DNA of 64,000 nucleotides from Escherichia phage P-GXEC-L2P5 (PQ843332.1), one strand, 5' to 3'. Positions 34,434 to 56,030 are shown, numbered from the stretch's first letter. Notes: generated by a model from the sequence alone, not told the origin. Translations and numbers: made by a program.

Positions 34434-34436
34434 ATG

Positions 34437-37508: not shown

Positions 37509-37512
37509 ATAG

Positions 37513-38187: not shown

Positions 38188-38229
38188 CGTGTGGTCCTCA
38201 TTGATGCGGGCCGAAGCCCTCGATTAGAA

Positions 38230-38947: not shown

Positions 38948-38997
38948 GTTTACTATAGTGCAACCAACCTATTGGTTGCAAGTGAATTTTGCAACGT

Positions 38998-39516
38998 TTA
39001 TTGCGTAAATTTTCGGGACCAAATCACCACACGCCCGACGAATTGCCGCGATGTTCTTCTCGCAATCTTCAATGATGACCAGTTCAGACACGTCCGCGTA
39101 GCAGACCATTTTGAACACGGCGCACGCTTTAAACTCAGGCGGCGTTCAATGATGACCAGTTCAGACACGTCCGCGTAGCAGACCATTTTGAACACGGCGC
39201 ACGCCTTAAACTCTGGCGGCGGGGTGTCGTCCAGCATGTGGCGCATAAACAACCGGCCTACGGGGAAGACCTCCAATTGCTCGGCGGTGGTGTCCCAGCA
39301 TTCTCGCTGCCGGTTGGTCAGATATGCGATCTCGAAGCCTTGCTCTTTATACATGCGCAGTAGCGGCAGCATATCCATGTTCAGGTCTTCGCGGACGTGC
39401 GCCTTGTGCCACTTCGCCCAAAAGGTGGATTTAGTTTTTATCCCCGGCACCAGGTCGGCGCGCGCATCGCTTGATCCATTAATAACGCCATCCAGGTCAC
39501 AAATCAGTAATTTCAT
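38998..39516 (-). CDS. HAD-superfamily phosphatase-like protein
   Basis: N-terminal MKLLICDLDGVI (HAD motif I DxDG). Confidence 0.5.
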   Translation of the reverse strand: MKLLICDLDGVINGSSDARADLVPGIKTKSTFWAKWHKAHVREDLNMDMLPLLRMYKEQGFEIAYLTNRQRECWDTTAEQLEVFPVGRLFMRHMLDDTPPPEFKACAVFKMVCYADVSELVIIERRLSLKRAPCSKWSATRTCLNWSSLKIARRTSRQFVGRVVIWSRKFTQ

Positions 39517-39606
39517 TTCAATTCCTCAATCAAATTTGCACGAACAATTGATCCATTAATAACGCCATCCAGATCACAAATCAGTAATTTCATTTCAATT
39601 CCTCAA

Positions 39607-39816
39607 TCAAATTTGCACGAACACTACGGGCGGAAAACGTGTCACACACACAAGATGACAGCGGGCAGTCATTACAAGCCAGCCAGTAAGGTCCATGCCC
39701 AGGATGTGTTCCGGACGTGACACACGACGCACTTTGTTCTCCCTCGGGTTTATTTGGTAGCGTTTAACAATTTCGTCCACGACGCGCATACTGCGATCAA
39801 CGACTAAGATATTCAA
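39607..39816 (-). CDS. small hypothetical protein (69 aa)
   Basis: ORF only. Confidence 0.3.
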   Translation of the reverse strand: MNILVVDRSMRVVDEIVKRYQINPRENKVRRVSRPEHILGMDLTGWLVMTARCHLVCVTRFPPVVFVQI

Positions 39817-39882
39817 GGAGTTCTCCTTCGCTCATTATTTCAATTTGTGCGCTGCCGGTGGGCGGCGCTTCGTCAAAGATTA

Positions 39883-40436
39883 TCAATTGCTGGCACTTGT
39901 TATTGCTCGGCCCGTTTCAATTTGTGCGCTGCCGGTGGGCGGCGCTTCGTCAAAGATTATCAATTGCTGGCACTTGTTATTGCTCGGCCCGACTTCGCCG
40001 GTTACAGCATGTATGAATCGGATCCGCCAGTCCAGAAGAATTATCAGGTTTGCAGTCTTCCGGGCCAGCTTCGCCCACTTCGTCGACGTGTCCTGATTCA
40101 GTAGCATGACGGTCCGGCGTCCGTGCGCCGCGCACTCGACCCACGGCAGCGGATCGGAATACGGCGGGTTGCACCACTTCCACCCTTTCAACTCTGACCA
40201 GTCCGCATCGAGCGCGCTGTGCTCTGCCGTGAAGTAACGCGGTAGCAGGTGGTTGGCATCGCTCGCCGCCATGTCATAACGGAATCTGTACTTCCGGCGC
40301 AGCGGTTTAAATAAAGCTGGCGGCGTGCGCCAGCTATCTTTTTGCTCACTCTTCTGCATGATCGGTACTTCCGGCGCAGCGGTTTAAATAAAGCTGGCGG
40401 AGTGCGCCAGCTATCTTTTTGCTCACTCTTCTGCAT
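39883..40436 (-). CDS. DNA N6-adenine methyltransferase (phage Dam family); frame broken by duplications
   Basis: MQKSEQKDSWRTPPALF N-terminus, DMAAS, NPPY catalytic motif. Confidence 0.75.
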
Positions 40437-40887
40437 GGTCTGTGTCTATCGCATAAAGTGGAGTCTTACCACCTTTATTGATGACGCGCTGCACGCGCTT
40501 TGCTTCTTCGACACTAAGCGGGCGCGCGTTATGGTAGATGCTGCCGTTTGTAGGGTTGCGCCACGCCATGAGCACAAGGTCTTTACGGTCGATCTTCGTT
40601 GTGCGACCTTTTGGGCGCACGTACTCCTCGGCACGTTTGCAATGCTCGCGCAAACCTTCGGCAGTGATGCGGTTTAGTGCAACGCTGGTTGTGTATCCGG
40701 TGCGCTGCATAATCCCCATCAATTCGAAAAGCAGTTCGAAACGCTCCTCTAGCTCCTGGCGCACTTTCTTCTCTCCTTCATATAGCGCCTGGTTGGTGTC
40801 AGCCACCGCGTTCGCACGTTCGGCCTGTTCGCGGGCTTCGAGGCATTGCGCGGCCCAGTAATTTTTCTCTTCTTGTAAAATTTTCAT
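40423..40887 (-). CDS. hypothetical protein (154 aa)
   Basis: ORF; tandem ATTGGTTGCAT motif upstream. Confidence 0.5.
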   Translation of the reverse strand: MKILQEEKNYWAAQCLEAREQAERANAVADTNQALYEGEKKVRQELEERFELLFELMGIMQRTGYTTSVALNRITAEGLREHCKRAEEYVRPKGRTTKIDRKDLVLMAWRNPTNGSIYHNARPLSVEEAKRVQRVINKGGKTPLYAIDTDHAEE

Positions 40888-40968
40888 CGTGTCGTCTCCG
40901 GGTATTAAAAAGGGCGTCCAAACCGGACACCCTCAATATAATGCAACCAATCTAATTATGCAACCAAT

Positions 40969-41292
40969 TTACGAATAAAAATTTGGGTCGCGTGCAACGT
41001 CTACCAGATACAGATTGCTGATTCGGTTGCCGTAGTGGCCTGGTGTTCGCTGGCGGCACACAACGGCGTAGCCTGGAGGAATTGTATTGCCGGTCGCGAT
41101 AATCCACGCCACGCGTGCGCCAGACAGCGTCTTTCCGTTGCATTCGATACGTGTTCCGCCGTCGGCAGTATTGATGTTGCCAATCTTGCAGCCGGTGGAC
41201 TTCAGACGAATGACGCCGGTTTTGCTGTCGTAGGAGAATAACTGGTTAGTCATTGCGACCGAAAAGTCGATGGCTTCGAATGTCGTATTCAT
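40969..41292 (-). CDS. HNH-like endonuclease, possibly degenerate
   Basis: NGK...ARVAWI...GN..SNL pattern of phage HNH proteins but no clear His/Cys metal ligands. Confidence 0.4.
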   Translation of the reverse strand: MNTTFEAIDFSVAMTNQLFSYDSKTGVIRLKSTGCKIGNINTADGGTRIECNGKTLSGARVAWIIATGNTIPPGYAVVCRQRTPGHYGNRISNLYLVDVARDPNFYS

Positions 41293-42138
41293 TTTAAATT
41301 TTCCTCGTTAACCGCTATCGCGAAGCCGCGCGGAGTGAGCGACCGGATTAATTTTGTGCGGGCTGATTTGCCTCCGAGGCGACTATACTGCTTCGAGTAC
41401 CCTTTTTCAACGAAAACAGGTTTCTTCTCTGGCATACGGAAGCCGTTGCCGGTCCATAAGCAGGTCAGCTTCGGATATGAATCGCGGGCGTTGATGTATT
41501 CTTCTCTGGCATACGGAAGCCGTTGCCGGTCCATAAGCAGGTCAGCTTCGGATATGAATCGCGGGCGTTGATGTATTCCGGGAAGAGCGGGTGTACGTCA
41601 TCATCCGGCAGATATCCCCCATACTCCCACGGGTCGAATGAGTGATCCGGTTTGCGCCACTGTGTGGAAAGCACACTGCGCGGATTCTCAATCATATACG
41701 GCACTTCGAAGAAGTCACCCAGGTAAGCGGCGATCTTCGCGGTGCGCACCGCCTTAAGCTGAAAGGCTGGGTCTTTTGCACGCCGAAGAAGTCACCCAGG
41801 TAAGCGGCGATCTTCGCGGTGCGCACCGCCTTAAGCTGAAAGGCTGGGTCTTTTGCACGCTTGCGCGGGAAAGCTGGCGCACCGCTCACTGCCAGATCCG
41901 TGCACGGAGGAAACGCATAGATGATATCTGGCGTACCGAAATCGCCATTCATCGCACGGTCTACAAAGTCCAGATCGATAAACTCATTGCGATAGCGGAT
42001 TCCGCGACCATAAATCCGGTAGTCAAGGTACGACCCGTGATCGGCTTCGGAGTAGTTGAAGCAATAACACTTATGCCCCATCTCGGCAGCACGCTCAATC
42101 ATCAAGCCGCTGCCGTCAAACAATGACCAGATTATCAT
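41289..42138 (-). CDS. DNA cytosine-5 methyltransferase-like protein; frame broken by duplications
   Basis: LFDGSG (motif I), FPPCTD (PC motif), ENP (ENV-like motif). Confidence 0.6.
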
Positions 42139-42211
42139 TTATAACACTTATGCCCCATCTCGGCAGCACGCTCAATCATCAAGCCGCTGCCGTCAAACAA
42201 TGACCAGATTA

Positions 42212-43942
42212 TCATTTGCGCGCCTTTTTAGCTTTCATGTATTCCATCAAGTCGTCCTGTATATCTCGCTTACTGTCGCGACGCTCGGCGACCAGTTCGT
42301 CTAGTGTTCCGCGCGCCTGGATAATGTAGACGAATACCGGTCGAGGGTGTCCGGCCTGCATCTGGCGAACCGGCCCGATACGTTCAACGATCTGCGAAAA
42401 GTGCTCAAAGTTCCAGGTATCGGAGAAGATTGCCAGGTGATGACCGCCGTCCTGCAAGTTAAGGCCGTGGCCCGCCGATGCCGGGTGTGCAAACATGATG
42501 GGGATCTCGCCCCTGTTCCACGCTTCCATATCCTTATTGCCCTGCTTACCCTTACCCAACGCGACGCCGTGCGGAAATTTCTTCTTAAGACGTGCCAGGT
42601 CATGCTTATACTGATACGCAACGAGCAACGGCGCGCCGTTCAACTCCTCCACGATACTTTCCAGTGCGTCCAGCTTCGCGTCGTGAATCTTCACCCACTC
42701 GTCGGTCCGTTCGCCGTCTTCGTCCACCTTATACACAGCGCCGGAAGCAAGCTGAAGGCACTTAATTGTCTTCGATGCCGCGTTCGCCGCTTCCACTGTT
42801 CCGCTTTCCAGTTCGGCAAATAGCTCGCTTTCAAACTGGTCGTAAATCTTGCGGGCTTTCTTCGGCAGGTCCACAACAACCGGCGTATAGATTGGCTTGT
42901 CGCACCCGAAGTATTCAGCCGCGTCAACGGTGAGGGATACATCTGACAGACGTTGTTGTATCTCTTTCTCGGAGTTCTTTAGCGGAGCGTGCTGCATAGT
43001 GAAGCTGCCAGGCTTAACAGGCTTGCTAATGAACCAGCGGTCGGTGAATGCCTTATAGCTACTACCGAGGCGTTCACCACCGTCGACGAACCACGTCTGA
43101 CCCCATAAGTCTTTCAAGCCGTTTGGTGCGGGTGTGCCGGTCAAGTTAATCCAGCGCTTGACGTGCTTATGTGCAATCGCCGCCAGTGCGCGTGCGCGCT
43201 TACTGCCCTGCTTGCTTCGATAGCCTTTCAGCTTAGTCGATTCATCGGCAACAACGACCGTAAAGGGCCACGCATCGCCGTAATAGTCGACCAGCCACTC
43301 AACCACATCGTAGTTAACACAAACCACGTTAGCGTCGCTCTCAAGCGCCGCAATACGGTCCTTCTCCGGCCCGGTGCCGTCTACAACCAGCAGGGATGAG
43401 AACCGCCATTTCTCCTGCTCCGGGGGCCATGTACCTGACGCAACACGCAGCGGGGCCAGCACCAGTACGCGGTCCTCATGATGGGACAGGACGCCAGTCT
43501 GGAACATTTTATTCAGCGCCCACATTGTCGCGCCGGTTTTACCCGATCCCATTGTCGCCCAGATATTACATCGCTTATGCTTGAGGATGAACGCGGTTAT
43601 CAACTTCTGATATTCGCGGCGTCGGAATCGTGCCATATCTTTATTCCGCCTTTTTCCAGACTTCGGTTTCACTGTTCCAGTTCCTTTTTGTAGCGTCGTA
43701 GTTGGTGGCGTGTCCGATGTGGACGCCTTTTTCCAGACTTCGGTTTCACTGTTCCAGTTCCTTTTTGTGGCGTCGTAGTTGGTGGCGTGTCCGATGTGGA
43801 CACCAGTAGCCCGGAAGCTCTTAAATTTTTGCCAGCACACCGTCAACGGCAGCGGGTCATTCATGCCAGCAATAAACCACACGCGATCGCCCGGTTTGCA
43901 TTCGCCCAGCTTGGTGAGTCGGTAATGTTCTTTCATCGTCAT
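42212..43942 (-). CDS. SF2 helicase (SNF2/DEAD-like)
   Basis: Walker A ATMGSGKT, DExx box VVADEST, C-terminal helicase domain; ATG 43942 with GGGAG RBS; duplications in the N-terminal extension. Confidence 0.8.
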   Translation of the reverse strand: MTMKEHYRLTKLGECKPGDRVWFIAGMNDPLPLTVCWQKFKSFRATGVHIGHATNYDATKRNWNSETEVWKKASTSDTPPTTTLQKGTGTVKPKSGKRRNKDMARFRRREYQKLITAFILKHKRCNIWATMGSGKTGATMWALNKMFQTGVLSHHEDRVLVLAPLRVASGTWPPEQEKWRFSSLLVVDGTGPEKDRIAALESDANVVCVNYDVVEWLVDYYGDAWPFTVVVADESTKLKGYRSKQGSKRARALAAIAHKHVKRWINLTGTPAPNGLKDLWGQTWFVDGGERLGSSYKAFTDRWFISKPVKPGSFTMQHAPLKNSEKEIQQRLSDVSLTVDAAEYFGCDKPIYTPVVVDLPKKARKIYDQFESELFAELESGTVEAANAASKTIKCLQLASGAVYKVDEDGERTDEWVKIHDAKLDALESIVEELNGAPLLVAYQYKHDLARLKKKFPHGVALGKGKQGNKDMEAWNRGEIPIMFAHPASAGHGLNLQDGGHHLAIFSDTWNFEHFSQIVERIGPVRQMQAGHPRPVFVYIIQARGTLDELVAERRDSKRDIQDDLMEYMKAKKARK

Positions 43943-44056
43943 GTCTCCCAAAAATGGCGGGACAAGCCCGCCGTATTAATTATTTTTGCTCTGCGCCGGT
44001 AATGTTCTTTCATCGTCATGTCTCCCAAAAATGGCGGGACAAGCCCGCCGTATTAA

Positions 44057-44230
44057 TTATTTTTGTTCTGCACGGTAGCGGCGCTGCCGTTCGCGCTCTT
44101 TCTTATTGCGGCACGATTTGCACTCTGCCCGATACCCGTCTGGACTGCGCGCAGTCTTACCGGTGTATTTGTGGAACTGGGATAGCGGCTTTACACAGCC
44201 GCAATTACTACAACGTTTTTCTTCAATCAT
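44057..44230 (-). CDS. small zinc-ribbon-like protein
   Basis: CSNCGC...CKSC cysteine pairs; ORF 44057..44365 with likely start at MIEEKR. Confidence 0.4.
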   Translation of the reverse strand: MIEEKRCSNCGCVKPLSQFHKYTGKTARSPDGYRAECKSCRNKKERERQRRYRAEQK

Positions 44231-44270
44231 CTCTAAAATCCTCGATATGGCTAACCGGCACACTATACCG

Positions 44271-44549
44271 CTATGCGACCAATTCAGCAACCAATAAATC
44301 GCAGTCGGATATGTTGTCGATAACGCGAACGTCAGCACCGCGGCGGGCCATTCGCTCATGTTCACGTACCTGGTGCGGCTTCGGTTTTCCTCCGGGGCGC
44401 TTCACTTCGACGAACACTATTTTGCCGTTGATGATAATAATCAGGTCGGGCGCACCCGCGCGCCCCTCCCATGCCAGTTTTCGGCAGAAGCCGCCAACCT
44501 CTTTCACCCGTCGCATCAGGTGGCTTTGAATCTTGCCTTCTGGTGTCAT
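44271..44549 (-). CDS. VRR-NUC domain nuclease
   Basis: GAPDLIIIINGKIVFVEVKRPGGK PD-(D/E)XK core; ATGA overlap with the HNH stop. Confidence 0.6.
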   Translation of the reverse strand: MTPEGKIQSHLMRRVKEVGGFCRKLAWEGRAGAPDLIIIINGKIVFVEVKRPGGKPKPHQVREHERMARRGADVRVIDNISDCDLLVAELVA

Positions 44550-45148
44550 TGTCGGCTTTTCCTTACGGCCGCGATGGCCGGTCCGATAAACTTCTTCATT
44601 TCGTCCGGGGTAAACCGGTCCCCGCGGGCTATGTTGCACTCTACGCAGCACGGCACGCAGTTATCTTTCGTATGGCCTACTGCGTTGTCGAGTCGGTCCG
44701 CGCCATTGTCGCCGGTGAATCCGCAGTATGCGCATGGTTGAGAAGTAAGGCGTAGCACGTCCTCGGTGGTTAGGTCGGTGGTTAGCCCCTTCCTTTCGTC
44801 CGCCTTACGGTACTGAAAGAGCTTATAGTAAGCTCGGATCTCTGGTGTCCGGTGGTTGTACTCACGGCGGGACTTATTAGAGCACGACCTGCATTCTTTA
44901 CGAATGTGTGACTGGCTTGCCCGGTTTCCGGGCCGGAAGTTTTCCGGCGTAAGCGGCTTGCGTTCCCCGCACTGACGGCACGTTACGATCTCCCCGGTAT
45001 ACTCTCGCCATACTTCGCGCGGCGGCGCTCCTCTTTCCTTATCACGTCTCTCTTTCTTATACGCCGCCATGCATTTGGCACACCACGACTGACCCTTGTT
45101 GAAAGCGGACTCATCTTTATCCGTATTACAACGCCCACAATGTTTCAT
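44546..45148 (-). CDS. HNH endonuclease (zinc-finger rich)
   Basis: CAYCGFTGDNGADRLDN...GHTKDNCVPCCVECNIAR HNH core, several CxxC pairs, GGGGGG RBS. Confidence 0.7.
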   Translation of the reverse strand: MKHCGRCNTDKDESAFNKGQSWCAKCMAAYKKERRDKERGAPPREVWREYTGEIVTCRQCGERKPLTPENFRPGNRASQSHIRKECRSCSNKSRREYNHRTPEIRAYYKLFQYRKADERKGLTTDLTTEDVLRLTSQPCAYCGFTGDNGADRLDNAVGHTKDNCVPCCVECNIARGDRFTPDEMKKFIGPAIAAVRKSRQ

Positions 45149-45214
45149 ATACCCCCCGAAAAAGAAAACGCCAGACAATATTGCCTGACGTTTCCGCTAA
45201 AAGCAACATTTCCG

Positions 45215-48200
45215 CTACTTGCGGTATCGATACATACAATCGCCCTCTGCGGCAAGTGGGAAGCCTTTCGCCCAAATCGGCAGGTCGCACATCAGCGCGC
45301 AAAGTTCCTCGGTCGTGTAGTCGTCAGTGTCCGGCACTTCGGTGATCAATTCATCGTGCACTGACAGGACGATTTCATAGCCCGCAGCTTCAACGCCAGG
45401 CATGGACCACGCGAGAATATCGCGACACAACGCTTGCACGATGTTCTCCGTAAGTTTGCCGCCGTAGGTGTACTGGAATCCCCACTGGCGCGTCGTCTGA
45501 TTCTCGCCCTGATATTTGATGCGGGTACTGGTGCGCTTCTTGCCGGTGTCTTCGTCGATCTCGGTCGTGACAGACAGTGCGATGCCGGGGTAGCTCATGA
45601 TGCGCCCCGACGGCAACTCAATTTTTAACCACCACCCCGCGGCGTTCGGGTCGTCGCGCTCCTCGTCAAAGGTTGGGTCGTGCTTCGCCTTCGTACGGAC
45701 AATCTTGAGCGCTTTTCTACCGTCCGGGCGAACGTTCGCACCAGCCCAGTATGCTTTGCCCGGATTGCGGATTGCACACAACACCGCGTCCTCAAGCTCG
45801 GCCCAAAAGGCTACCGTCTTCGGGTGAGCCTCACGCCACATACGTTTGATCGCGTCACAAGTAAGCCATACGTTTTTCGGCAGTATGTAAGTCGGGCGCT
45901 CGTCCTTCTTGCCCGGCTTCGGTGGGCGTTTCGCTTCGTTAATGCGGGCGTACTCATAACCGCGCTTCGCCGCCGCCCAAATGTGATCCGGGAACGTGCC
46001 TTTCATCACGTCCGCCATAGTGTAAAGGTCGAGTCCCAGGTTTTTAGCGAACTGCAAGAACGCCGCGACGCCGCCACCATAGCCCAGGCCAAGCTCGCAG
46101 TTATGCGCCACCAGAAAACCAGACTTAGACGCAATAAGGAACCGGTTTCCGTCTTCCACATCAATCAGGTCGTAAACCGGCTCGCAATAGGTTAACTTCC
46201 CGTTCCAGTTCAGCAATGCGGGTAAGGGCTTCATCGTACTTTCTCTGAAGCTCGGGCACGCTGCGCCGGTTACGGCAGTTTTCCGAACGGCTGACAAACC
46301 GAAGGTTTCCAGGCTCATAGTTGCCGTCTGTATCGATCCGGTCCATTTCGAAGTCGGGATTATCCCAGCCGTCCAGCGTTTGAACGTAGAGAAGAAACGA
46401 CCTTTTATCTCTCTTCCATTCGTCACATACGGCAATCCCACGACTGCCGTAGTTTTTATACCCTTTGGCGCGGGGGTTTGTCGTTCGTGATATTGCCGCT
46501 GACAGCCGGTTGAGCAGCCGCGTTCTGTGCGCATCGTCTGGCATTGCGTCATCGTAGCAAAAATACTGTTTACGATACCGCTTTGTCGCTTCAATTGCGC
46601 AGAGGTTGCATTGGGATGTTTTACCCCTTCGGACGTTGTCATACCCGACGCGTCCTGGCATCGCTCCGCAATCACATTGGGCCAGCAGTTGTCTGTGCCC
46701 CTGTCGTTTTGGTAATTCGCGCAGGATAACCAGGCGTCCATACCTCTCGCCAGGGCGCGGGCCATCGTGCACCTGTCTGAAACGAGTTGCCTTGCCTCCT
46801 TCCATGAATGCGTCAAGATTTTGTGGTCTTCTGTCATCAAGACCCCGTCCACGTCTATCACTGGTTTCCACCCCATAAGGTGCGCGCCTTGTGTACTCAC
46901 CCATTTTTCGCCGTTCCATACTTTATCCGTTGATGTTACGGCCATAATATCCTTGAACCCGCCATTGGTCAATACTTGGGTATGGCGGTGCAAGCAAGCC
47001 TTACCGATCTGGCGTAAGTCCTTGCGGTTAGCTTTAATGTAATCCGGGTCCAGGCCGAACATTTTACCGGCAGTCTCGCAATAAATATCGCGACCGGCCT
47101 TAAACACCATTAACGCGGTTTTCTCGCCAGCGACCCAGGCAAGGCCGCGCCCTTCCACGTTGGAGTAGTCCGCGACGACAAACTTCTTGCCCTTAGCCGG
47201 AATGATGCACCCGCGAACGGTCGAGGCGGTTAGCTTCGATATGTCATACGCCCAGTGCGCTGTCCCGCGTAACAGGGAGTTGATGCCGTTGGTGAGCATG
47301 TGCGACCGAACCCAAAACGAGACGTCGCTTTCACCCTCGCGGCGTTTAATCTTCCCTTCGTGGTCGTCGCTGTACTCGCCACGCGCCAGGTTTTGAGGTT
47401 GAAAGCCTTTACCGGCCCAGCGTAGCGTGCGCTTTGCCCCACCATACTGAAGACACCCACGGCGGCGACCATCTGCGGATAAGCCGTTAACTAGCGGATT
47501 GTACTTAGTCGATGCCGTTGATGACGCTCCGAGGCGCATTTCTATAAGCGCTTTGCCTTCGTCGGGGAAGTCCGGGTCTTCAAGCAGGTCGTTAAGTGTG
47601 GATTTCTGCGCGTTGTGGATTGTGAACGCCGGGGCGATATCACGCAGGATTGGCAGGAAGTCATTGCCTGTCAGTTTACCACCAAATCGCTCCCAGGCTT
47701 CTTCCTTCAATTCTTCCTTATGCGCCTGCACCGCTTTGATCGCGGCGTTCGCCAGGTCAACGTCGACGTAGAAGCCGCGGTCGTTAATCAACTGGTCGAT
47801 GAGCAGGATTTCATCTTCCTTAGGCGAGTTTCCCCAGTCCGGTATGCGCCAGTAGACTTCACGCATTGCGATAATATCCAGCGCGGCATAGCGCAGAAAT
47901 TTGGCCCATTCTTCCGGGTGAGTCTCGCGAGTGTAGCGGCGGATTTTGTAGGTCTTAGGGGTAGGCTTACAGAATCGGTTAATCAGCGCCTTGCCTGCCT
48001 TATCCTTCGCGTGCTCTGCGTCAACGCCCAGAACCTGGCACTGCATATCGAGGCTACCGGGCAGCGCGTGGCGAAAGGCCATAATCATAGTGTCTTCGAT
48101 CTGGCTTACCGGCAGGTCAATACCCCACTTCTCGCGGATAACCAGGCGGTCAAACAGGAGGCCGTTAGCCATCACTATTTTAGCCTTCTTGCGGGATACC

Positions 48201-48403
48201 CGGCGGAGCGCCTTGCGCAGTTCACGCGGCATTGTGGGGGATTCAGTGGCATCCCATGTCTGCACGCGGCCCTCGTCTATGGCGTAGGTGCAAATCATAA
48301 TCTCTGTGGTTGGGTGCTCCGCGTAGGCGTACGCCCCAACTTTCTTCAGGTCCACCCCGCTAAATGTCTCGGTGTCGAGAAACAGGCGTTCGAAGTCTTT
48401 CAT
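45215..48403 (-). CDS. DNA polymerase, family A, with 3'-5' exonuclease domain and an intein inserted in motif B
   Basis: Exo LDTET; motif A DYSNVEGR; motif B split as RQIGK | intein | ELGLGYGGG; motif C VHDE; continuous 1062-aa ORF. Confidence 0.85.
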   Translation of the reverse strand: MKDFERLFLDTETFSGVDLKKVGAYAYAEHPTTEIMICTYAIDEGRVQTWDATESPTMPRELRKALRRVSRKKAKIVMANGLLFDRLVIREKWGIDLPVSQIEDTMIMAFRHALPGSLDMQCQVLGVDAEHAKDKAGKALINRFCKPTPKTYKIRRYTRETHPEEWAKFLRYAALDIIAMREVYWRIPDWGNSPKEDEILLIDQLINDRGFYVDVDLANAAIKAVQAHKEELKEEAWERFGGKLTGNDFLPILRDIAPAFTIHNAQKSTLNDLLEDPDFPDEGKALIEMRLGASSTASTKYNPLVNGLSADGRRRGCLQYGGAKRTLRWAGKGFQPQNLARGEYSDDHEGKIKRREGESDVSFWVRSHMLTNGINSLLRGTAHWAYDISKLTASTVRGCIIPAKGKKFVVADYSNVEGRGLAWVAGEKTALMVFKAGRDIYCETAGKMFGLDPDYIKANRKDLRQIGKACLHRHTQVLTNGGFKDIMAVTSTDKVWNGEKWVSTQGAHLMGWKPVIDVDGVLMTEDHKILTHSWKEARQLVSDRCTMARALARGMDAWLSCANYQNDRGTDNCWPNVIAERCQDASGMTTSEGVKHPNATSAQLKRQSGIVNSIFATMTQCQTMRTERGCSTGCQRQYHERQTPAPKGIKTTAVVGLPYVTNGREIKGRFFSTFKRWTAGIIPTSKWTGSIQTATMSLETFGLSAVRKTAVTGAACPSFRESTMKPLPALLNWNGKLTYCEPVYDLIDVEDGNRFLIASKSGFLVAHNCELGLGYGGGVAAFLQFAKNLGLDLYTMADVMKGTFPDHIWAAAKRGYEYARINEAKRPPKPGKKDERPTYILPKNVWLTCDAIKRMWREAHPKTVAFWAELEDAVLCAIRNPGKAYWAGANVRPDGRKALKIVRTKAKHDPTFDEERDDPNAAGWWLKIELPSGRIMSYPGIALSVTTEIDEDTGKKRTSTRIKYQGENQTTRQWGFQYTYGGKLTENIVQALCRDILAWSMPGVEAAGYEIVLSVHDELITEVPDTDDYTTEELCALMCDLPIWAKGFPLAAEGDCMYRYRK
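46100..46996 (-). mobile_element. intein (Hint domain) within the DNA polymerase
   Basis: Block A CLHRHTQVLTNGGFKDI, block B LMTEDHKILT, block F/G PVYDLIDVEDGNRFLIASKSGFLVAHN followed by Cys. Confidence 0.75.
46161..46919 (-). CDS. HNH homing endonuclease domain encoded inside the intein in a different frame from the polymerase
   Basis: GERYGRLVIL...CDCG...SQCNLC zinc region, GYKNYGSRGIAVCDEW, DRIDTDGNYEPGNLRFVSRSENCRNRR. Confidence 0.6.
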   Translation of the reverse strand: MERRKMGEYTRRAPYGVETSDRRGRGLDDRRPQNLDAFMEGGKATRFRQVHDGPRPGERYGRLVILRELPKRQGHRQLLAQCDCGAMPGRVGYDNVRRGKTSQCNLCAIEATKRYRKQYFCYDDAMPDDAHRTRLLNRLSAAISRTTNPRAKGYKNYGSRGIAVCDEWKRDKRSFLLYVQTLDGWDNPDFEMDRIDTDGNYEPGNLRFVSRSENCRNRRSVPELQRKYDEALTRIAELEREVNLLRAGLRPD

Positions 48404-48570
48404 TGCTTTATCCTCACTACGGCGTCAGCGCTGCCGATCATGGAGAAGATGCCGTCGGACAGGGCGATCTCTTCGCCGTTGTTGCGAATCTCGGCAACTG
48501 TGAAATATTCCCCCAGTAGCTTGGACCATACTTGCATTCCGACTTTTACTTCGCTGGCTTTAATACGCAT
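48400..48570 (-). CDS. small hypothetical protein (56 aa) overlapping the polymerase start
   Basis: Hand-translated MRIKASEVKVGMQVW...; ATGA overlap with the polymerase ATG. Confidence 0.3.
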   Translation of the reverse strand: MRIKASEVKVGMQVWSKLLGEYFTVAEIRNNGEEIALSDGIFSMIGSADAVVRIKQ

Positions 48571-48583
48571 TTTTCATTGTCCT

Positions 48584-48609
48584 GTTAAAAAGCCCGCATT
48601 AAGCGGGCT
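48584..48609 (-). terminator. rho-independent terminator on the minus strand
   Basis: AAGCCCGC-ttaat-GCGGGCTT followed by a T run on the minus strand; copied again at about 48663 by an artefact duplication. Confidence 0.6.
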
Positions 48610-48782
48610 TGAATAGTGGGCTTTGCCCTTAACGGCGGCGACGGTTACGTGGTGCTTCGTCTTAAAAAGCCCGCATTAAGCGGGCTTGAATAGTGGGCTT
48701 TGCCCTTAACGGCGGCGACGTTTACGTGGTGCTTCGTCTTCGTCGTCGTCCATTAAGCGGGCTTGAATAGTGGGCTTTGCCC

Positions 48783-49478
48783 TTAACGGCGGCGACGTTT
48801 ACGTGGCGCTTCGTCTTCGTCGTCGTCTTCGTCATCGTCATCACGACGTTTTGACTTTTTGGACTTACGCGGGCTTTCATCTTCGTCATCGTCGCCCAGG
48901 TCTTCGTCGGAACATGAAGACCCGCCACCGCCGAAGGCTTCGCCGTCATCACGGAAGCGCATACCCAGCAGACCACAGCCTAAGCCTTTGCCGTTGGTAT
49001 TGTTCCAGGCCCAAATATCTAAGGAAACGTTGCAATAGCAACCGGAATAGATTTCCTTCCCTTCGATTTCGTCGCCGTCGATGGTCAGACCCTGCTCCGT
49101 CTGCTTCTCGCCTTCGGAAGTCTGGATGATCGGCTGTTTGAACGATTTGGCGTTGATGTACAACATGCCTTCGAATTCTTCGGTTACTTCGTCGCGCTCG
49201 TCACCGTCGCGAACTGCGCATTCCTTAGAATCCTGGGCGTAGTGGCGGTCCATCCACTTATCGGCATTCTTCTCGGATTTCAGCTTGTCGGTGAGCACTG
49301 CGCGCGCTGCCGCTTCCACTTTGTCCACCTGCGGATCTTCTTTATCAAGAAGAATCACGGCGCGGTATGCCGGTTTTTGTCCATCCTGTTTAGGGGTATC
49401 ACGTTCCCAAATTTTAAGGAAACATACACGCACATTTTTCAGGTTGACTTTAGCCATTTTCCAATTCCTCATTTTCAC
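48783..49478 (-). CDS. DUF2815-type SSB-like protein
   Basis: N-terminus MAKVNLKNVRVCF; acidic C-terminal tail; adjacent to DUF2800 and the polymerase. Confidence 0.7.
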   Translation of the reverse strand: MKMRNWKMAKVNLKNVRVCFLKIWERDTPKQDGQKPAYRAVILLDKEDPQVDKVEAAARAVLTDKLKSEKNADKWMDRHYAQDSKECAVRDGDERDEVTEEFEGMLYINAKSFKQPIIQTSEGEKQTEQGLTIDGDEIEGKEIYSGCYCNVSLDIWAWNNTNGKGLGCGLLGMRFRDDGEAFGGGGSSCSDEDLGDDDEDESPRKSKKSKRRDDDDEDDDEDEAPRKRRRR

Positions 49479-49624
49479 ATGTATCGGGGTTATTGGAAGC
49501 CACCCCGTTCGGCTTGGTTGCTAATTTACTCCATTTTCCAATTCCTCATTTTCACATGTATCGGGGTTATTGGAAGCCACCCCGTTCGGCTTGGTTGCTA
49601 ATTTACTTGGTTGCGCCTGAGCGG

Positions 49625-49867
49625 TCAAGCATTTTCATTAAAAAGATTTCGGGTAACGTAGTTGGTCGCGTTCTCGATCCAGCTTAACGGCGGGCGGTTG
49701 ATGTTCTTCTCCACCCAATCGACGGCAGCTTCGCTATAGCCGTCATCCAGCCAGCGGGTCGGATGTCTAATCATCCATGCCACCATTAACACGCCTTGCA
49801 CACAATGCAGGATAAAGCCCAGCGCGCCGATAACAAACATCAATAAGATTGCGAATACTTTATTCAT
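49625..49867 (-). CDS. small membrane protein (80 aa)
   Basis: Hydrophobic N-terminus MNKVFAILLMFVIGALGFIL; same gene as the partial ORF at 1..169. Confidence 0.45.
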   Translation of the reverse strand: MNKVFAILLMFVIGALGFILHCVQGVLMVAWMIRHPTRWLDDGYSEAAVDWVEKNINRPPLSWIENATNYVTRNLFNENA

Positions 49868-51367
49868 TGCTTAAGTCCTCGTCAGTAGCTACAGACCACG
49901 CAGGGCGCGGGTCGTCGATGGGTGCTAATACCGGTTTAGCTGGTGCGCGCGTGATTTTATCACACAGCTTCGCCCATACTTTCGGCTTCTCGTCCTTCAA
50001 TACCTTCTCGGCATCAGTAGGGCTGAGTAATGTTTCTTTGTACATCACATCGCGCTTGATCCGGGCCTTCGTGAAGATTTCAATCACTTCGCTTTCGTCC
50101 GCCCACTTGCGAATCCCTTCCTTACCTGCAACCATCTTGAGGCCCAGCGATTCGCCGTCGCCCGCCATCACAGCCTTGAATACCGCGGACTCGATAGCCT
50201 TGATGTGCTGGCGCATTGCGTCCAGGCCTTCATAAGCCTTGCGCAGTTCCGCGGCGGTCATAGCGCCGGGGGCCGCTTCTTTCTTGCCACGCTTCGCACG
50301 TCGTGCCGCTTTGCGGGCTTCGCGGGCCATATTGCGGTCGTGATTGGCGCATTCTTCCTCTGTCGCAATACTCACGTCGTCGCCCAGGTCTTCGTCTGTT
50401 GCCGTTGGTGGGGTCATCGTGCCGATTGCAGCCTTAGCGCGGGCGCTACACTGATCCGCAAATCTGCACCACTGACACGCATCAACGCTCGGTCGGAAGT
50501 CGGCGCGGGTGAGTCCCTTTTTTCCGCGGGAGTACGCTTCCAGGGCGGCGATAGCACGCTTGGACGCAAACTTAGCGAATATCTCCAGGGCTTCTACCGA
50601 AATATCCCACTCCGACGCCCCGCCGCAATACGGCTGGAAGATAACAAGGCGCACGGTTGTAATGTCGTACATAGTTTTCAGCTTGCGCAGCAAGCCCAGC
50701 GCATACAACATAAGCTGTTTGTTTTCTTTCGCCTCGACCTTATGCCGCCCCGTCTTCAGGTCGCCAACAATCAGCATGTACGTGCCGTCGGTCTTCTTCA
50801 TGACCATGACCATATCGGCAGTACCGAACGTCTTAACCCGGTTGCCGTCGATCTCGAAGCCTGAGTGAAGGACGCGGGTCAGATCGGCGCGCATCTCAAG
50901 CTGAACAAACTCCGCCACTTCGAGGAGCGGTCGCCAGTGGTCGATGTACGCGTCGCACTGTTTCACCATGTCGTCGTTGACCAATACGCCGCCTTTCGGT
51001 GCTTTAGGGTGTGCCTTTCGATGTACGCGTCGCACTGTTTCACCATGTCGTCGTTGACCAGTACGCCGCCTTTCGGTGCTTTCGGGTGGGCCTTTACCGG
51101 CCCCTTACCTTCGTTCTCTACGTAGCACCCTTTGTACGTCTTAGCGGTTATCAGCTTCTCCCCGGCAATGATGCGGTTTAGCACCACTTCAGATACGGTG
51201 TGCATACTCGTACCGTTAATCGCCGCTTGCCCGGATTCGTTCGGGATATCTTTTTCCACCACCAGGGCGGCGGGACACCCCATCCATTTTTTAGCACCGG
51301 ATGGGCCAAGTAATGAGTGTTCTGTATTGCTACCGGATTGCGTTTTACGTTTTGGTTTAATCGCCAT
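49860..51367 (-). CDS. unit 2: DUF2800-type nuclease; frame broken by duplication near 50950..51070
   Basis: ORFs 49860..51035 and 50963..51367 with the same motifs as 162..1746. Confidence 0.7.
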
Positions 51368-51443
51368 TATTCCACCCGTGTAAACTGGACAATTACATAT
51401 TTCACATTACCGGATTGCGTTTTACGTTTTGGTTTAATCGCCA

Positions 51444-51623
51444 TTATTCCACCCGTGTAAACTGGACAATTACATATTTCACATTCGCCAAGCCCGCTTT
51501 TTCGACACGGCTGCGCACTTCATGCTGCGCATCGGTCCAGCACATCGAGGCGTCCTTGTTAACAACAAGAAAAGAGAAATGGTCGTTTAATTCGTGGCAA
51601 GTTGCCAGCACGAAAAATTTCAT
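51444..51623 (-). CDS. unit 2: small hypothetical protein (diverged homolog of 1823..2002)
   Basis: Hand-translated MKFFVLATCHELNDH... Confidence 0.35.
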   Translation of the reverse strand: MKFFVLATCHELNDHFSFLVVNKDASMCWTDAQHEVRSRVEKAGLANVKYVIVQFTRVE

Positions 51624-51874
51624 TATTTTGTCTCCCAGCGGTCAATTGTTTTTGCTTCGGATGCAACGGCGAAGCGAACATATTCCAGATTGGAGTCAGC
51701 CCAAATATAAAAATCGGGGTTAGTAAAGGTGGTGCGCTTAATTTGCGCGGGGGTGTTGCGGCGTTTATCTATTACGGCAACGCGGGATTGAAAGCTGCCG
51801 ATGCGTTCGAATAGCCAATAGTACGGGCGCTGGTCGCGGGAATCCACCGCCTCGATTAGCGTGAATCGTGCCAT
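51623..51874 (-). CDS. unit 2: hypothetical protein (homolog of 2002..2253)
   Basis: ORF, 83 aa. Confidence 0.55.
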   Translation of the reverse strand: MARFTLIEAVDSRDQRPYYWLFERIGSFQSRVAVIDKRRNTPAQIKRTTFTNPDFYIWADSNLEYVRFAVASEAKTIDRWETK

Positions 51875-51922
51875 TGTCTCGTCCTCTAAAAAGAGGCCCG
51901 CTAATATGCGGGCCGGATAATA

Positions 51923-52048
51923 TTAATCTTCACCGCCGAGTTGTTTATAAACCTCGTCCGGGTCGTCGCCTCTTTCTTCGCAGAAGGCGGTGAATGCCGC
52001 CCAATTTTCTGCTATGAAATCGAGCATGATTCTCATTTCATAGTCCAT
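51923..52048 (-). CDS. unit 2: small hypothetical protein (homolog of 2302..2427)
   Basis: Same start/stop arrangement as unit 1. Confidence 0.3.
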   Translation of the reverse strand: MDYEMRIMLDFIAENWAAFTAFCEERGDDPDEVYKQLGGED

Positions 52049-52052
52049 GATA

Positions 52053-52644
52053 TTAATCTTCCAGTTCGAAATAAGTTTCGACGATTTCTTTTAGCTCTTT
52101 GTGGAAGTCTTCGACGTCGTCATCTTCCAGCTTAGCGATTGATTTGATCTCGAACGATTCCAGAAGGTCGTCGAATTCGTCGTTCGCATCGTCGTCATCG
52201 CCACCGGCGATAATCGCGGCATACTGTTTGATTTCGTCGCGCATCTCCGCCAGCGGATCGGCATCTTTCTTACCTTTGCCTTTCGCCGGTGCTTTCTTAG
52301 ACTTAGCCGGTTTTTCGTCTTCGGCATCGGCATCGTCGTCGTCATCTTCTACGACTTCTTTTTTGGCCTTACCTTTCGCCGGTGCTTTTTTGGTTTTCGC
52401 CGGTGCTTCGTCTTCAGCGTCGTCATCTTCTACGACTTCTTTTTTTTACCTTTCGCCGGTGCTTTTTTGGTTTTCGCCGGGGCTTCGTCTTCAGCGTCGT
52501 CATCTTCTACGACTTCTTTTTTGGCCTTAGACGGCTTCTTGTCTTCCTGTTTACCAACGGCAGCGCCAACGGTTTCATAATGCTTAGCGATGATTTCCAG
52601 TGCTACTACGCCGCGAGTGATCAGGTTTACGATTTGCTCAAACA
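52053..52644 (-). CDS. unit 2: acidic/lysine-rich repeat protein; frame broken by duplication near 52370..52500
   Basis: ORFs 52053..52244 and 52430..52873 share the KPAKAKKAPAKGK repeats. Confidence 0.5.
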
Positions 52645-53123
52645 TGGTATATCTCCGATTGGTTAAGTTTAGGTGTCGACCATTAACTTCGTCGGTGGCC
52701 TTAACATAGTGCCAGGTTACGCGTTCTCCCTTTCGGGTAGTGGACCTGGTTATATAATCACGGTTGGGAATCCTGACACTTCGATCCGGCCCCTGCGTTG
52801 CCCCTCTCCAGTTTGCGTCCTGCATCCTGTCGACGAGGTGAATATTAGATTGGTTGCAGAAGGGAGTCAACAACTAATTTCAAAAAAAAAGCGCCGAAGC
52901 AAAATGCGACGGCGCTAACCAATAAGAGACAATGAGACGGGAGTATTATTACACGCGTGCGCGCCCGTTTCAATATTCCAAAGGAGTTGACACCACCAAT
53001 AAGAGACAATGAGACGGGAGTATTATTACACGCGTGCGCGCCCGTTTCAATATCCCAAAGGAGTTGACACCCTGCGGTTTTAGGTGTAGTTTCATTGGTC
53101 ATTAACCAACCGGAGACAGAATA

Positions 53124-53453
53124 ATGAATATCAACGACGCAATCGAAATGCTAACGAAGACTGTCTGCAGTGAGACTAGCCGGTCCTGGGCGTATACCGA
53201 TGCCGTGGGGGCGGTGCTATTTGAAATCGAACGTCTGCGACTTACCGAAAAAGAATTGCGCGCCAGGCTGGAATTACTCAACGGTACGGCAGCCAGCAAG
53301 CTGCAAAAGCACAATGAAGAAATGGAAGAATACAAAAAACAGGTTATCCGTCTACGTGAGGAAGGTAAATCCTGGGCTATGATCGCCGAGCTAACCGGAA
53401 TCAACCAGAGCACCGTGCGCTCCTGGGTACGCAATAATAAAACTTCGAAGTAA
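53124..53453 (+). CDS. unit 2: HTH regulator (diverged N-terminus, conserved C-terminal HTH)
   Basis: 109-aa ORF homologous to 3430..3759. Confidence 0.6.
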   Translation: MNINDAIEMLTKTVCSETSRSWAYTDAVGAVLFEIERLRLTEKELRARLELLNGTAASKLQKHNEEMEEYKKQVIRLREEGKSWAMIAELTGINQSTVRSWVRNNKTSK

Positions 53454-53463
53454 GGCAACGGCA

Positions 53464-55959: not shown

Positions 55960-56030
55960 ATCCTATTTTGAGTGTTTTTAGCTGGTCGCATTGGTTGCCG
56001 TGCAGTATAAATATAGTGAATAGTTATGCA

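Follow-up and report, generated by a model that had tools for sequence, protein, structure and literature searches.

Inteins whose homing endonuclease is encoded out of frame have been known since 2025, when a preprint described them in actinophages. These inteins are contiguous, their splicing domain lies in the extein frame and the endonuclease ORF occupies another frame of the same strand ("frame 3"); in-frame translation of the endonuclease region gives no recognisable structure. The authors, who called their own sampling sparse, proposed that a free-standing endonuclease gene had invaded the intein. A second system, the ShiLan domain of mycobacteriophage DNA methylases, is an in-frame insertion that hides an out-of-frame HNH gene (PMC11855218). 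No splicing domain can be detected in it, and it is believed to stay in the protein. In fractured genes, a free-standing endonuclease gene lies between the halves of a split intein (Dassa et al. 2009, PMC2677866).

We found a new and widespread variant of the out-of-frame class in a window of 64,000 nucleotides from Escherichia phage P-GXEC-L2P5 (PQ843332.1). This phage is a Dhillonvirus with 98.7% identity to Sodalis phage SO-1 across the polymerase gene. Its family A DNA polymerase very likely carries a mobile class 1 intein with a homing-endonuclease gene nested in the -1 frame of the same strand. As in the actinophage inteins, the extein frame is uninterrupted, the endonuclease ORF lies in another frame between the splicing blocks at the identical offset, and the in-frame translation of this region has no recognisable structure. 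The window's family differs in its hosts (enterobacterial Dhillonvirus and Jerseyvirus, and many uncultured phages) and in the endonuclease family, here a zinc-ribbon protein of 247 aa whose predicted HNH core is PacI-like. Its ORF also overlaps about 45-70 Hint-N codons, takes its start codon and Shine-Dalgarno (SD) element from conserved Hint residues, and in 14/56 loci ends inside the terminal His-Asn codons.

Other resemblances are partial. Like the ShiLan domain, the insert has a stop-free host frame, a same-strand HNH gene in an alternate frame that begins only a few codons after the insert does and, in certain relatives of the window, terminates within the last four bases (TAAC), and a patchy distribution consistent with homing. 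Unlike the ShiLan domain, it has a complete Hint domain, located at a polymerase active-site motif. As in fractured genes, the Hint domain is interrupted at the nested-endonuclease position by what would be an independently translated endonuclease gene, but the host frame is unbroken, so that one polypeptide is encoded and splicing would be in cis. Ordinary class 1 inteins are mobile by homing, and those that bear an endonuclease likewise place a class 1 Hint domain in a replication protein, at a conserved active-site motif, with the endonuclease region between blocks B and F. In the window, by contrast, the endonuclease is outside the intein polypeptide and has its own start and stop, and a linker without predicted structure is found instead. 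The 2001 account by Lazarevic of the bnrdE intein of a Bacillus prophage reportedly may describe a similar out-of-frame ORF. Literature searches on this polymerase intein in SO-1, EP23 and Jerseyviruses gave no paper that mentions the nested gene.

The features of the locus are as follows.

45215..48403, minus strand: family A DNA polymerase precursor ORF (N-extein, intein and C-extein), 1062 aa.
46997..48403, minus strand: N-extein, aa 1-469, with its C-terminal ...RQIGKA in motif B; aligned to aa 1-469 of the mckay polymerase.
46100..46996, minus strand: putative intein coding sequence, aa 470-768, 299 codons, 897 nt, 0 stops; from motifs, family profile and predicted Hint fold.
46697..46996, minus strand: N-terminal Hint lobe, codons 1-100, with block A (Cys1, T6, G13), block B (T55, H58) and a predicted helix at 75-101; from invariant columns and pLDDT.
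46944..46972, minus strand: candidate sigma-70-like promoter in the block A coding sequence (TTGACC, 17 nt, TATTAT), 10/12 matches.
46902..46918, minus strand: likely endonuclease start, ATG 46904..46902, with its SD-like element; from synonymous-site constraint and SD pairing.
46697..46816, minus strand: transition zone, codons 61-100, in which both frames are apparently constrained; from wobble, conservation and confident models of both products.
46161..46904, minus strand: nested endonuclease gene, -1 frame, 247 aa and a TGA stop; an in-frame ATG upstream, at 46919, would give 252 aa.
46232..46687, minus strand: host-frame "shadow" linker, codons 104-255, stop-free and without predicted structure; from model and conservation.
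46100..46213, minus strand: C-terminal Hint lobe, codons 262-299, ...VYDLIDVEDGNRFLIASKSGFLVAHN; from invariant columns and pLDDT.
45215..46099, minus strand: C-extein, aa 769-1062 and the stop, whose first residue is the +1 nucleophile Cys (CELGLGYGGG); from the mckay alignment.

A preliminary description of this DNA had placed an insert of about 299 aa at 46100..46996, splitting a family A polymerase at motif B, and both the coordinates and the content are as it described. Comparison with phage mckay, whose 763-aa polymerase is intein-less, fixes the insertion point at RQIGKA/CELGLGYGGG in motif B, which in family A polymerases sits in the fingers O-helix. The insertion is in frame, falls in a conserved host motif and is missing from orthologous alleles, in which the +1 Cys is already native (GKACELGLGYGGG in mckay). 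The Pfam DNA_pol_A match to the polymerase ORF (3.1e-13) stops just ahead of the insert, and in the sampled homologs it always ends at profile position ~204-217, at the same place. A polymerase CDS of the same length, 3189 nt, occurs in SO-1, EP23 and Pubbukkers, and the last of these is labelled "putative intein-containing DNA polymerase". The window's assembly contains about 64 scattered artefactual duplications of 77 bp, none of them within 44072..48584.

Several lines of evidence indicate that the insert, read in the polymerase frame, is a class 1 intein. It begins with Cys and ends with His-Asn followed by Cys, as had been claimed, and together with T55xxH58 these residues make up the class 1 pattern. 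Cys1 and the C-terminal HN are present in 80/80 copies, which have Cys (79) or Ser (one) at position +1, and C1, T55, H58, D276, G293, H298 and N299 are invariant in 46 diverse copies. The proposed check against intein profiles was informative: a profile of the family, compared with the PDB, matched the Mtu RecA intein (E=1.7e-4) as well as the inteins NEQ068 and DnaX; of its 13 matches, 12 are intein or Hint-type entries. In an AlphaFold (AF2) model, block-mean pLDDT is 96-98 for residues 1-90, 78 for residues 91-100 and 93-97 for residues 271-299, with residues 262-270 less confident than those from 271 onward (>90). All of the top 24 Foldseek matches to this model are inteins or Hint domains (probability 0.4-1.0); E-values are only ~1e-2 because the N lobe alone aligns (74-94 alignment columns). 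For linker residues 104-255, although the alignment comprised 46 sequences, pLDDT is <50 and the model has no secondary structure, in agreement with the earlier remark that the middle of the insert has no recognisable domain.

Curated Pfam and NCBIfam models gave no Hint or HNH match at E<=1 to the insert in both frames or to an artificial mini-intein, although one homolog matched Pfam Vint (5.8e-5), and single-sequence searches of the PDB gave no match. The Hint blocks, previously called recognisable, can be seen in the motifs, the family profile and the predicted structure, but not by Pfam or NCBIfam. In PHROGs, the insert read in the host frame matched positions 1-282 of the 613-position phrog_93 profile, labelled "endonuclease" (1e-126). 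We interpret this profile as seeded by mis-called ORFs of the same region, putatively running from an internal Met of the intein into the C-extein, and did not use the match as evidence. We infer splicing from the intact catalytic residues and the presumed essentiality of the host gene.

The product of the nested frame is a predicted zinc-ribbon, HNH-like endonuclease. The +2 (equivalently -1) frame is open across 46161..46919 (252 aa), and the remaining frame has dozens of stops. PHROGs matched the endonuclease frame to HNH families (2.7e-47) and gave a weak link to endonuclease VII (phrog_1035, 7.6e-5). The 247-aa protein is predicted to be well folded and to combine a Cys4 zinc ribbon with a beta-beta-alpha core of HNH-like type (…EMDRIDTDGNYEPGNLRF…N..N.R) and a helix at its C terminus; the four residues of the putative zinc site (C77, C79, C99, C102) are invariant in 57 sequences. 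The predicted core is PacI-like, but the canonical catalytic His is missing, and a search of the PDB with the endonuclease profile returned just zinc-ribbon look-alikes. The HNH domain that had been termed clear is thus indicated by PHROGs, motifs, profiles and predicted structure, but Pfam and NCBIfam are silent on it and the term was somewhat too strong. Free-standing phage genes annotated as HNH (for example ORF058 of Staphylococcus phage G1 and homologs from phages of Enterococcus, Bacillus and Ralstonia) are homologous to nested residues ~52-215 at 28-36% identity. Among the matches listed, the relatives from Staphylococcus, Enterococcus and Bacillus phages align from residue ~52 on, and the free-standing genes have no aligned counterpart of the N-terminal extension, so these ~50 aa appear to be the part that was overprinted on Hint-N.

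The two-frame layout is conserved. Across 80 related viral loci, whose endonucleases range from 100% down to 40% identity, the same nesting, frame offset and open host frame occur in 79. The only frame-broken copy is that of Salmonella phage SS3e, in which two 1-nt insertions split the polymerase into separate ORFs. The wobble position corresponds to host codon position 3 over codons 1-65 and again from codon 271, and to the endonuclease frame between them, with the phase switching at around codons 65-80 and 270. As judged from this pattern, selection acts on the host frame at both ends of the insert and shifts to the endonuclease frame in between, and residue conservation, scored per frame, changes in parallel. 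No wobble position is dominant in codons 61-85, and in codons 76-100 residue conservation is 0.50 for the host frame and 0.61 for the endonuclease frame (baseline 0.45). In the linker, host-frame residue conservation (0.37-0.43) is that of the third-frame baseline (0.36-0.40). The endonuclease frame is under strong purifying selection over ~190 codons across 40-50% divergence; mid-region differences between the window and one related locus (L018) include 84 that are synonymous in the endonuclease frame and 13 that are synonymous in the host frame.

Stop codons are avoided in the host frame. None occurs in 56/56 non-redundant loci, compared with 3.6-5.4 expected and 13.7 in the third frame. In the central 207 codons of the window, synonymous permutation of the endonuclease codons created a mean of 4.6 host-frame stops, with P(no stop) ~0.01, and 0/200 draws with extein codon usage were stop-free; binomial and permutation P-values of this kind overstate independence, since the loci share a phylogeny. 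As the polymerase is presumably essential, selection would remove any host-frame stop that arose within the endonuclease gene; the shadow frame would in this way stay open while its sequence remained free to change. These observations support the view that the layout is genuine dual coding maintained by selection, as opposed to an error of sequencing. The preliminary description had left open two readings, an open linker with an overprinted endonuclease or a pair of compensating frameshifts, and it is the former that the shared offset, the wobble switch, the stop avoidance and a constrained start codon favor.

The start of the endonuclease is most likely at the second ATG, 46904, and not at 46919, the limit given earlier. 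This ATG consists of the last base of host codon 31 and the TG of Trp32, and the gene product opens with MGEY. Across the family, the codons for Trp27-Asn28-Gly29 form an SD-like element upstream. The base before Trp32 is A, G or T in 56/57 loci, and the four-fold-degenerate codons at this position end in A in 14/14 cases. In a sister clade, Val33 before Cys34 is encoded by GTA in 16/16 cases, which generates an ATG. SD pairing energies at these starts are -8.0/-8.8 kcal/mol against a background of -2.6, although the window's own element, at -4.3 kcal/mol, falls short of the family mean. The first ATG, 46919, has no SD-like pairing (family mean -0.9 kcal/mol) and is missing in many loci. This pattern supports a start codon maintained through constraint on synonymous sites of the host frame. 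The promoter candidate inside block A is a lead only. By chance, 1.0 such site is expected in the region, and the same position is promoter-like in 24/57 loci. Codon bias lends it moderate support: Leu9 is encoded by TTG in 55% of cases against 26% at other Hint sites (p=1.6e-5, ignoring kinship), and Ile17 by ATA in 50% against 33% (p=0.009, likewise ignoring kinship).

The full insert occurs in only 8/311 matching phage records, a patchy distribution. Phages with 92-97% identity in their exteins share 99.0-99.9% identity in the intein, and the low divergence reaches the immediate flanks of the intein, as if these had been co-converted. The contrast in identity indicates recent homing, that is, horizontal spread. 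The family comprises 1177 clusters at 50% identity (E<=0.001). On the evidence of these sequences, hundreds of diverged phage polymerases share the conserved layout, which extends beyond a few actinophages.

Within family A polymerases, this Hint family seems to occur in four states: a mini-intein with a remnant of an endonuclease gene, contiguous inteins with the gene in the -1 or in the +1 frame, and a split intein whose halves flank a free-standing gene of the GIY-YIG or HNH-like type. The first is exemplified by a related mini-intein (L063) that retains only a remnant of the out-of-frame ORF. One split locus (L083), in the same polymerases, has Hint-N, a stop, a GIY-YIG gene and Hint-C; in another (L029), Hint-N and a stop are followed by an HNH-like gene akin to the window's and then by Hint-C in a different frame. 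If the series is what it seems to be, it captures free-standing endonuclease genes colonising inteins, with bifunctional or split inteins as the outcome. We are evenly divided on a broader reading, namely that the locus is a long-lived, co-adapted two-frame selfish element belonging to this series, with the endonuclease start, the SD element and possibly a promoter written into conserved Hint residues (WDGxxWV; VLT…AIV) and with a precursor carrying a peptide of ~150 aa that is kept only stop-free.

In the mechanism we propose, ribosomes translating the polymerase would read through the whole 299-codon insert. The Hint lobes (N ~100 aa, C ~38 aa) would pair across the ~150-aa linker, which would be a mere off-frame translation of the endonuclease gene. 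Splicing via Cys1, T55xxH58, His298-Asn299 and the +1 Cys would excise the insert, rejoin RQIGKA-CELGLGYGGG and restore motif B. Separate initiation at the internal ATG 46904, part of which comes from the conserved Hint Trp codon, would yield the 247-aa nuclease. In co-infections this nuclease may cleave intein-less polymerase alleles, and repair would then copy the intein into them.

Other explanations fit the locus less well. An ordinary intein with an in-frame HNH domain, displaced by two compensating frameshifts that arose as sequencing or assembly errors or as recent mutations, has a probability close to nil. The artefactual duplications in the assembly speak for it, as does the annotated SS3e ORF, which fuses Hint-N to the HNH frame. 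However, those duplications spare the polymerase region, a single substitution and no indel separate the insert from that of SO-1, which was sequenced independently, and there is no in-frame version among the 80 loci, of which 79 share the offset down to 40% identity. The wobble phase and the conserved internal ATG point to long-term selection on the layout, and the SS3e fusion arises from the same two 1-nt insertions that fragment its polymerase. A group I intron is extremely improbable, despite the annotation of gp38 and gp39 in SO-1 as "type I self-splicing intron" and despite the frequency of HNH ORFs in phage group I introns, polymerase genes included (PMC3428280). In a covariance-model search against Rfam, neither strand of 45000..48600 matched a group I or II intron at E<=10, so no conserved ribozyme core was detected. 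Every listed insert length is divisible by three, only one of the 80 loci lacks an open host frame, and the insert ends, which model as a Hint domain, are under host-frame selection at the protein level with invariant catalytic intein residues. It is also quite unlikely that the insert is a non-splicing loop tolerated in the mature polymerase and hiding an HNH gene. Although this architecture is known from the ShiLan domain (PMC11855218), the window's insert shows all the hallmarks of a class 1 intein and is predicted to adopt a Hint fold, and 299 aa in the fingers O-helix of an essential enzyme are unlikely, on general grounds, to be tolerated.

Two further alternatives concern the endonuclease. 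Its -1 offset relative to the host frame could mean that programmed -1 ribosomal frameshifting produces a fusion of N-extein, Hint-N and HNH, and in a few loci the -1 frame is indeed open well upstream of the intein start. In most loci, however, a stop closes this frame just upstream of the conserved ATG, and the ATG and SD element are under synonymous-site constraint. An X_XXY_YYZ heptamer occurs in the relevant 300 nt in just 9/57 loci, at unconserved positions, and the match to an Rfam frameshift element is weak (13 bits, gathering threshold 70), which leaves this explanation very improbable. The nested ORF might instead be a decaying relic, in effect making the insert a mini-intein with a long junk linker that no longer homes. 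The homing-cycle model expects endonuclease decay after fixation, a related mini-intein has in fact kept only a remnant, and the nested protein lacks the catalytic His. Nevertheless, we consider decay improbable given the purifying selection over ~190 codons with its 84 to 13 excess of synonymous differences, an ORF that is intact in all loci except SS3e, and Dhillonvirus inteins that are far more alike than their exteins.

A mobile intein with a nested endonuclease gene, which we prefer, would mean that two genes in different frames of one stretch of DNA, one for an intein and the other for its homing endonuclease, can persist together. It lends support to the view that the splicing domain came first and the endonuclease gene invaded later, and it links contiguous to split inteins. 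The locus is also a clean natural case of overprinting in which one frame appears to be selected solely against stops, and could serve to calibrate methods that detect overlapping genes and synonymous constraint. A Hint domain predicted to tolerate an unstructured insert of 150 residues may interest protein engineers.

There are also consequences for annotation. Because of the intein, the polymerase sequence used in phylogeny or expression would be that of the precursor. Gene callers overlook the nested gene, and in one record the insert appears, wrongly, as a group I intron. About 150 Salmonella Jerseyvirus/Dhillonvirus records match at 80-90% identity; among the ~15 such matches listed, only SO-1, and SS3e via its broken ORF, annotate more than the polymerase there.

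The genome is that of a Dhillonvirus. In the polymerase region, it matches Sodalis phage SO-1 at 98.7% identity; the values for Shigella phage EP23 and for Escherichia phages AV129, PS2 and Pubbukkers are 94.5-96.6%.

Features of the polymerase region
45215..48403, minus strand: family A polymerase ORF, 1062 aa; its Pfam DNA_pol_A match ends just ahead of the insert
46100..46996, minus strand: insert (intein), 897 nt, polymerase residues 470-768; Cys first, His-Asn last, then Cys
46161..46919, minus strand, -1 frame: nested endonuclease ORF, open for 252 codons, matching PHROGs HNH-endonuclease families (2.7e-47)
46972..46944, minus strand: sigma-70-like site (candidate promoter) inside block A

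At least 80% of the polymerase gene is covered in only 8 of 311 matching phage records, and residues 470-768 are missing in most relatives. The remaining records, such as that of phage mckay, align in two pieces and are continuous across the insertion point, with RQIGKACELGLGYGGG uninterrupted; the intein-less motif B DNA of mckay around this point is …CAGATCGGTAAGGCG|TGCGAATTGGGA…. Within the insert, the polymerase frame (host frame) has 0 stops, the -1 frame is open for the 252 codons of the nested ORF and the third frame has dozens of stops. The coordinates, the reading of the frames and the intein-less mckay gene thus bear out the preliminary description, which had noted an insert in the polymerase ORF that starts with Cys and ends with HN followed by Cys. 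Across the intein family, there are three adjacent insertion points in motif B, located 2, 3 or 6 residues past a conserved Lys.

The family-level evidence that the insert is an intein is clear. HMMER comparison of the host-frame insert with the whole library gave 1177 clusters (50% identity) at E<=0.001, of which 346 reach E<=1e-10. The best matches mostly span the full 299 residues, within proteins of ~900-1300 aa, and all eight sampled matches belong to family A polymerases, in which the Pfam match stops at motif B. Eighty inserts were compared, drawn from viral contigs, two metagenome loci and the window. All of them begin with Cys and end with His-Asn, and the residue at +1 is Cys in 79 inserts and Ser in the remaining one. 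Residues C1, T6, G13, T55, H58, D276, G293, H298 and N299 are invariant in 46 diverse intein copies. A profile of intein copies matches solved inteins (Mtu RecA with E=1.7e-4, next NEQ068 and DnaX), and 12 of its 13 matches are intein or Hint-type entries. The AlphaFold2 model built on the alignment of those copies has pLDDT values (means of 10-residue blocks) of 96-98 for residues 1-90 and 93-97 for residues 271-299; residues 104-255 have values below 50 and lack secondary structure. The top 24 Foldseek matches to this model are all inteins or Hint domains, with E-values of only ~1e-2 because just one lobe aligns. The splicing domain whose Hint blocks had been called recognisable in the polymerase frame is found by the family profile and in the model, but Pfam and NCBIfam scans of the insert in both frames, as well as single-sequence PDB searches, yielded no match.

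The HNH-like endonuclease previously noted in the other frame is a real gene, as seen from its PHROGs match, its homologs and a conserved motif. There are 460 homologs, and the majority of the best 120 are 236-263 aa long. Little or no variation is seen in four Cys residues (a zinc ribbon) and in the motif D-R-x-D…Y-E-P-G-N-x-R-F…N..N.R. The AlphaFold2 model of the protein has a mean pLDDT of 84 and is confident from about residue 50, with the first ~20 residues disordered. In distant relatives from Staphylococcus, Enterococcus, Bacillus and other phages, many of which carry the annotation 'HNH endonuclease', the alignment begins only at residue ~52, so that residues 1 to ~50 look like an extension created by overprinting of the sequence coding for Hint-N, the N-terminal lobe of the splicing domain.

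Two explanations had been offered for the separate frames: dual coding, or two compensating frameshifts. The host ORF is open over the entire endonuclease ORF, at the same offset, in 79 of the 80 best viral loci, whose identity ranges from 100% down to 40%. This distribution supports dual coding and leads us to reject compensating frameshifts. The lone exception, Salmonella phage SS3e (AY730274.2), has two single-base insertions, at intein nt offsets 33 and 305, one of which lengthens a G run. They split its polymerase into separate ORFs, and an annotated 268-aa ORF joins Hint-N to the endonuclease frame. Probably this old record contains sequencing errors, or the copy is defective. Three metagenome contigs, whose endonuclease is 44-47% identical to that of the window, share one layout: a family A polymerase whose frame encodes Hint-N, then stays open over a stretch that has no recognisable protein sequence, and then encodes a Hint-C ending in …HN|C, with the endonuclease in the -1 frame.

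Dual coding is also supported by a switch of phase and by conservation in each frame. In 57 non-redundant copies, variability peaks at host position 3 in host codons 1-65 and 271-299, and at host position 2, which is the endonuclease third position, in host codons 80-270. Over codons 101-260, residue conservation is 0.62-0.71 in the endonuclease frame, 0.37-0.43 in the host frame, which is the level of the unused third frame (0.36-0.40); at the two intein ends, it is 0.61-0.73 in the host frame and about 0.40-0.45 in the endonuclease frame. Codons ~61-100 appear to be constrained in both frames, and both structure models are confident there.

The central ~200 codons contain zero host-frame stops in 56 of 56 non-redundant loci, compared with an average of 13.7 in the third frame. 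When the endonuclease codons are permuted synonymously, 3.6 host-frame stops are expected (mean P(0) ~0.04; 0.01 for the window), and with extein codon usage 5.4. Given that synonymous sites have likely turned over many times at such divergence, something must actively keep the host frame open, and the simplest explanation is the truncation of the polymerase that a stop there would cause.

The preferred endonuclease ATG (46904 in the window, for a protein of 247 aa) draws on conserved Hint codons: it consists of the last base of codon 31 and the TG of Trp32. Among 57 loci, the base before this TG is A (38 loci), G (17), T (one) or C (one), and all 14 four-fold-degenerate codons at position 31 end in A. 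A sister clade starts at Val33-Cys34 instead, and the Val codon is GTA in 16 of 16 cases. Shine-Dalgarno-like pairing upstream of these starts averages -8.0 and -8.8 kcal/mol (background -2.6, 5th percentile -6.9); at -4.3 kcal/mol, the pairing in the window is weaker than the family means. The upstream ATG at 46919 has essentially no such pairing across the family. At the other end, 14 of 56 loci have an endonuclease ORF that terminates at a TAA within the final CAT-AAC (His-Asn) codons; in the window, the ORF stops 61 nt ahead of the intein end. A promoter-like sequence occurs at the same position as the sigma-70-like site in 24 of 57 loci, and some codon bias in related loci favours it. Since the site is within chance expectation for the window, we regard a promoter as a lead only. 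The mechanism that these comparisons support well is one in which a polymerase precursor carrying an unstructured shadow linker would splice in cis, and a separate homing endonuclease would be made by internal initiation.

An endonuclease produced by -1 frameshifting is unlikely, because no slippery heptamer is conserved across the loci. In the SO-1 record, the insert is annotated as a 'type I self-splicing intron'. We reject this annotation, since Rfam intron models have no match at E<=10, 79 of 80 loci have an open host frame, which is under protein-level selection at both ends, and the ends are predicted to fold as a Hint domain. The insert could also be a tolerated loop that does not splice, as was proposed for the ShiLan domain (PMC11855218), but its complete intein catalytic set and its location in motif B make this unlikely. 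Purifying selection on the endonuclease frame, together with the recent spread of the element, contradicts the reading of the nested ORF as a decaying relic.

A literature search did not find a paper on the nested gene of this polymerase intein. An older Bacillus prophage report may describe a similar out-of-frame ORF in an intein. A 2025 preprint describes actinobacteriophage inteins with a separate-frame endonuclease; sampling was sparse, and the endonuclease VII-like gene, in 'frame 3', was called previously unreported by the authors (bioRxiv 10.1101/2025.01.02.630785). The window element is of the same kind and has the same frame offset, but differs in endonuclease family, host gene and phages, and the conservation of its family differs in depth and breadth. 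Also in contrast to those inteins, its nested ORF overlaps the splicing domain, which supplies the start codon and Shine-Dalgarno sequence. We class the window element as a widespread, new form of the recently described out-of-frame-endonuclease intein.

Identity to the window of the intein and its exteins (flanking polymerase parts)
Pubbukkers: N-extein 92.0%, intein 99.1%, C-extein 93.3%
EP23: N-extein 97.9%, intein 99.0%, C-extein 92.0%
SO-1: N-extein 97.0%, intein 99.9%, C-extein 100%

Between Dhillonviruses, the intein is far more alike than the host gene, and the low divergence reaches a short way into the flanks, as would be expected after recent homing accompanied by co-conversion. Within the phage collection, full-length copies are found in a few Dhillonviruses and, at 80-90% identity, in about 150 records of Salmonella phages, most of them Jerseyvirus. 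The sampled records label the CDS over the element 'DNA polymerase' or 'intein-containing DNA polymerase precursor', and the nested gene is unannotated.

In the window and 57 related loci, the Hint-coding parts have markedly more A/T-ending codons than the exteins: for example, CTG makes up 21% of Leu codons, versus 42.5% in exteins, and ATA 33% of Ile codons, versus 13.5%. This codon usage is consistent with an element moving between hosts. Homologs of the nested gene (e.g. L005, L006, L007 and many contigs of ~0.9-1.3 kb) very often lie at contig ends or on tiny contigs, a sign that assemblies of metagenomes may break at the insertion site owing to presence/absence polymorphism of the intein.

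The same Hint family occurs in several states at other polymerase sites. Two loci have a second, split intein: in L083:1200-2600, Hint-N ends at a stop and is followed by a free-standing GIY-YIG gene before Hint-C resumes, and in L029:600-1800, an HNH-like gene related to that of the window separates the halves, which are in different frames. This layout is the 'fractured gene' arrangement. Locus L085:4163-5083 has a second contiguous intein of 307 codons with an open host frame, where the related HNH-like ORF is in the +1 instead of the -1 frame. The equivalent site in L063:4103-4573 holds a 157-aa mini-intein, whose +1 frame keeps only a helix-turn-helix-like ORF remnant. These states fit a scheme in which free-standing endonuclease genes invade mini-inteins, and the survivors keep the host frame open or become split inteins.

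Directly downstream of the polymerase (44546..45178, minus strand) is a free-standing gene for a 210-aa endonuclease VII/HNH-like protein (phrog_1035, 3.8e-43). A gene is present at the equivalent position in SO-1 (gp37, 'putative HNH endonuclease') and mckay (hypothetical protein), whereas EP23 and Pubbukkers lack one. This is probably another mobile endonuclease gene next to the polymerase, independent of the first.

Tandem duplications of 77 bp, exact or nearly so, occur at ~64 sites in 391..63983, very roughly one per kb, with none within 44072..48584. They have 2.0 copies, mostly 96-100% identical (e.g. 43920..44071 and 48585..48817), and each frameshifts the gene that it hits, as in the doubled 'MFFHRHVSQKWRDKPAVLIIF' peptide in ORFs at 43787..44529. 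The window sequence also recurs at an interval of about 49.5 kb. The duplications look like an assembly artefact, namely untrimmed k=77 unitig overlaps along a circular path through a ~45-kb genome.
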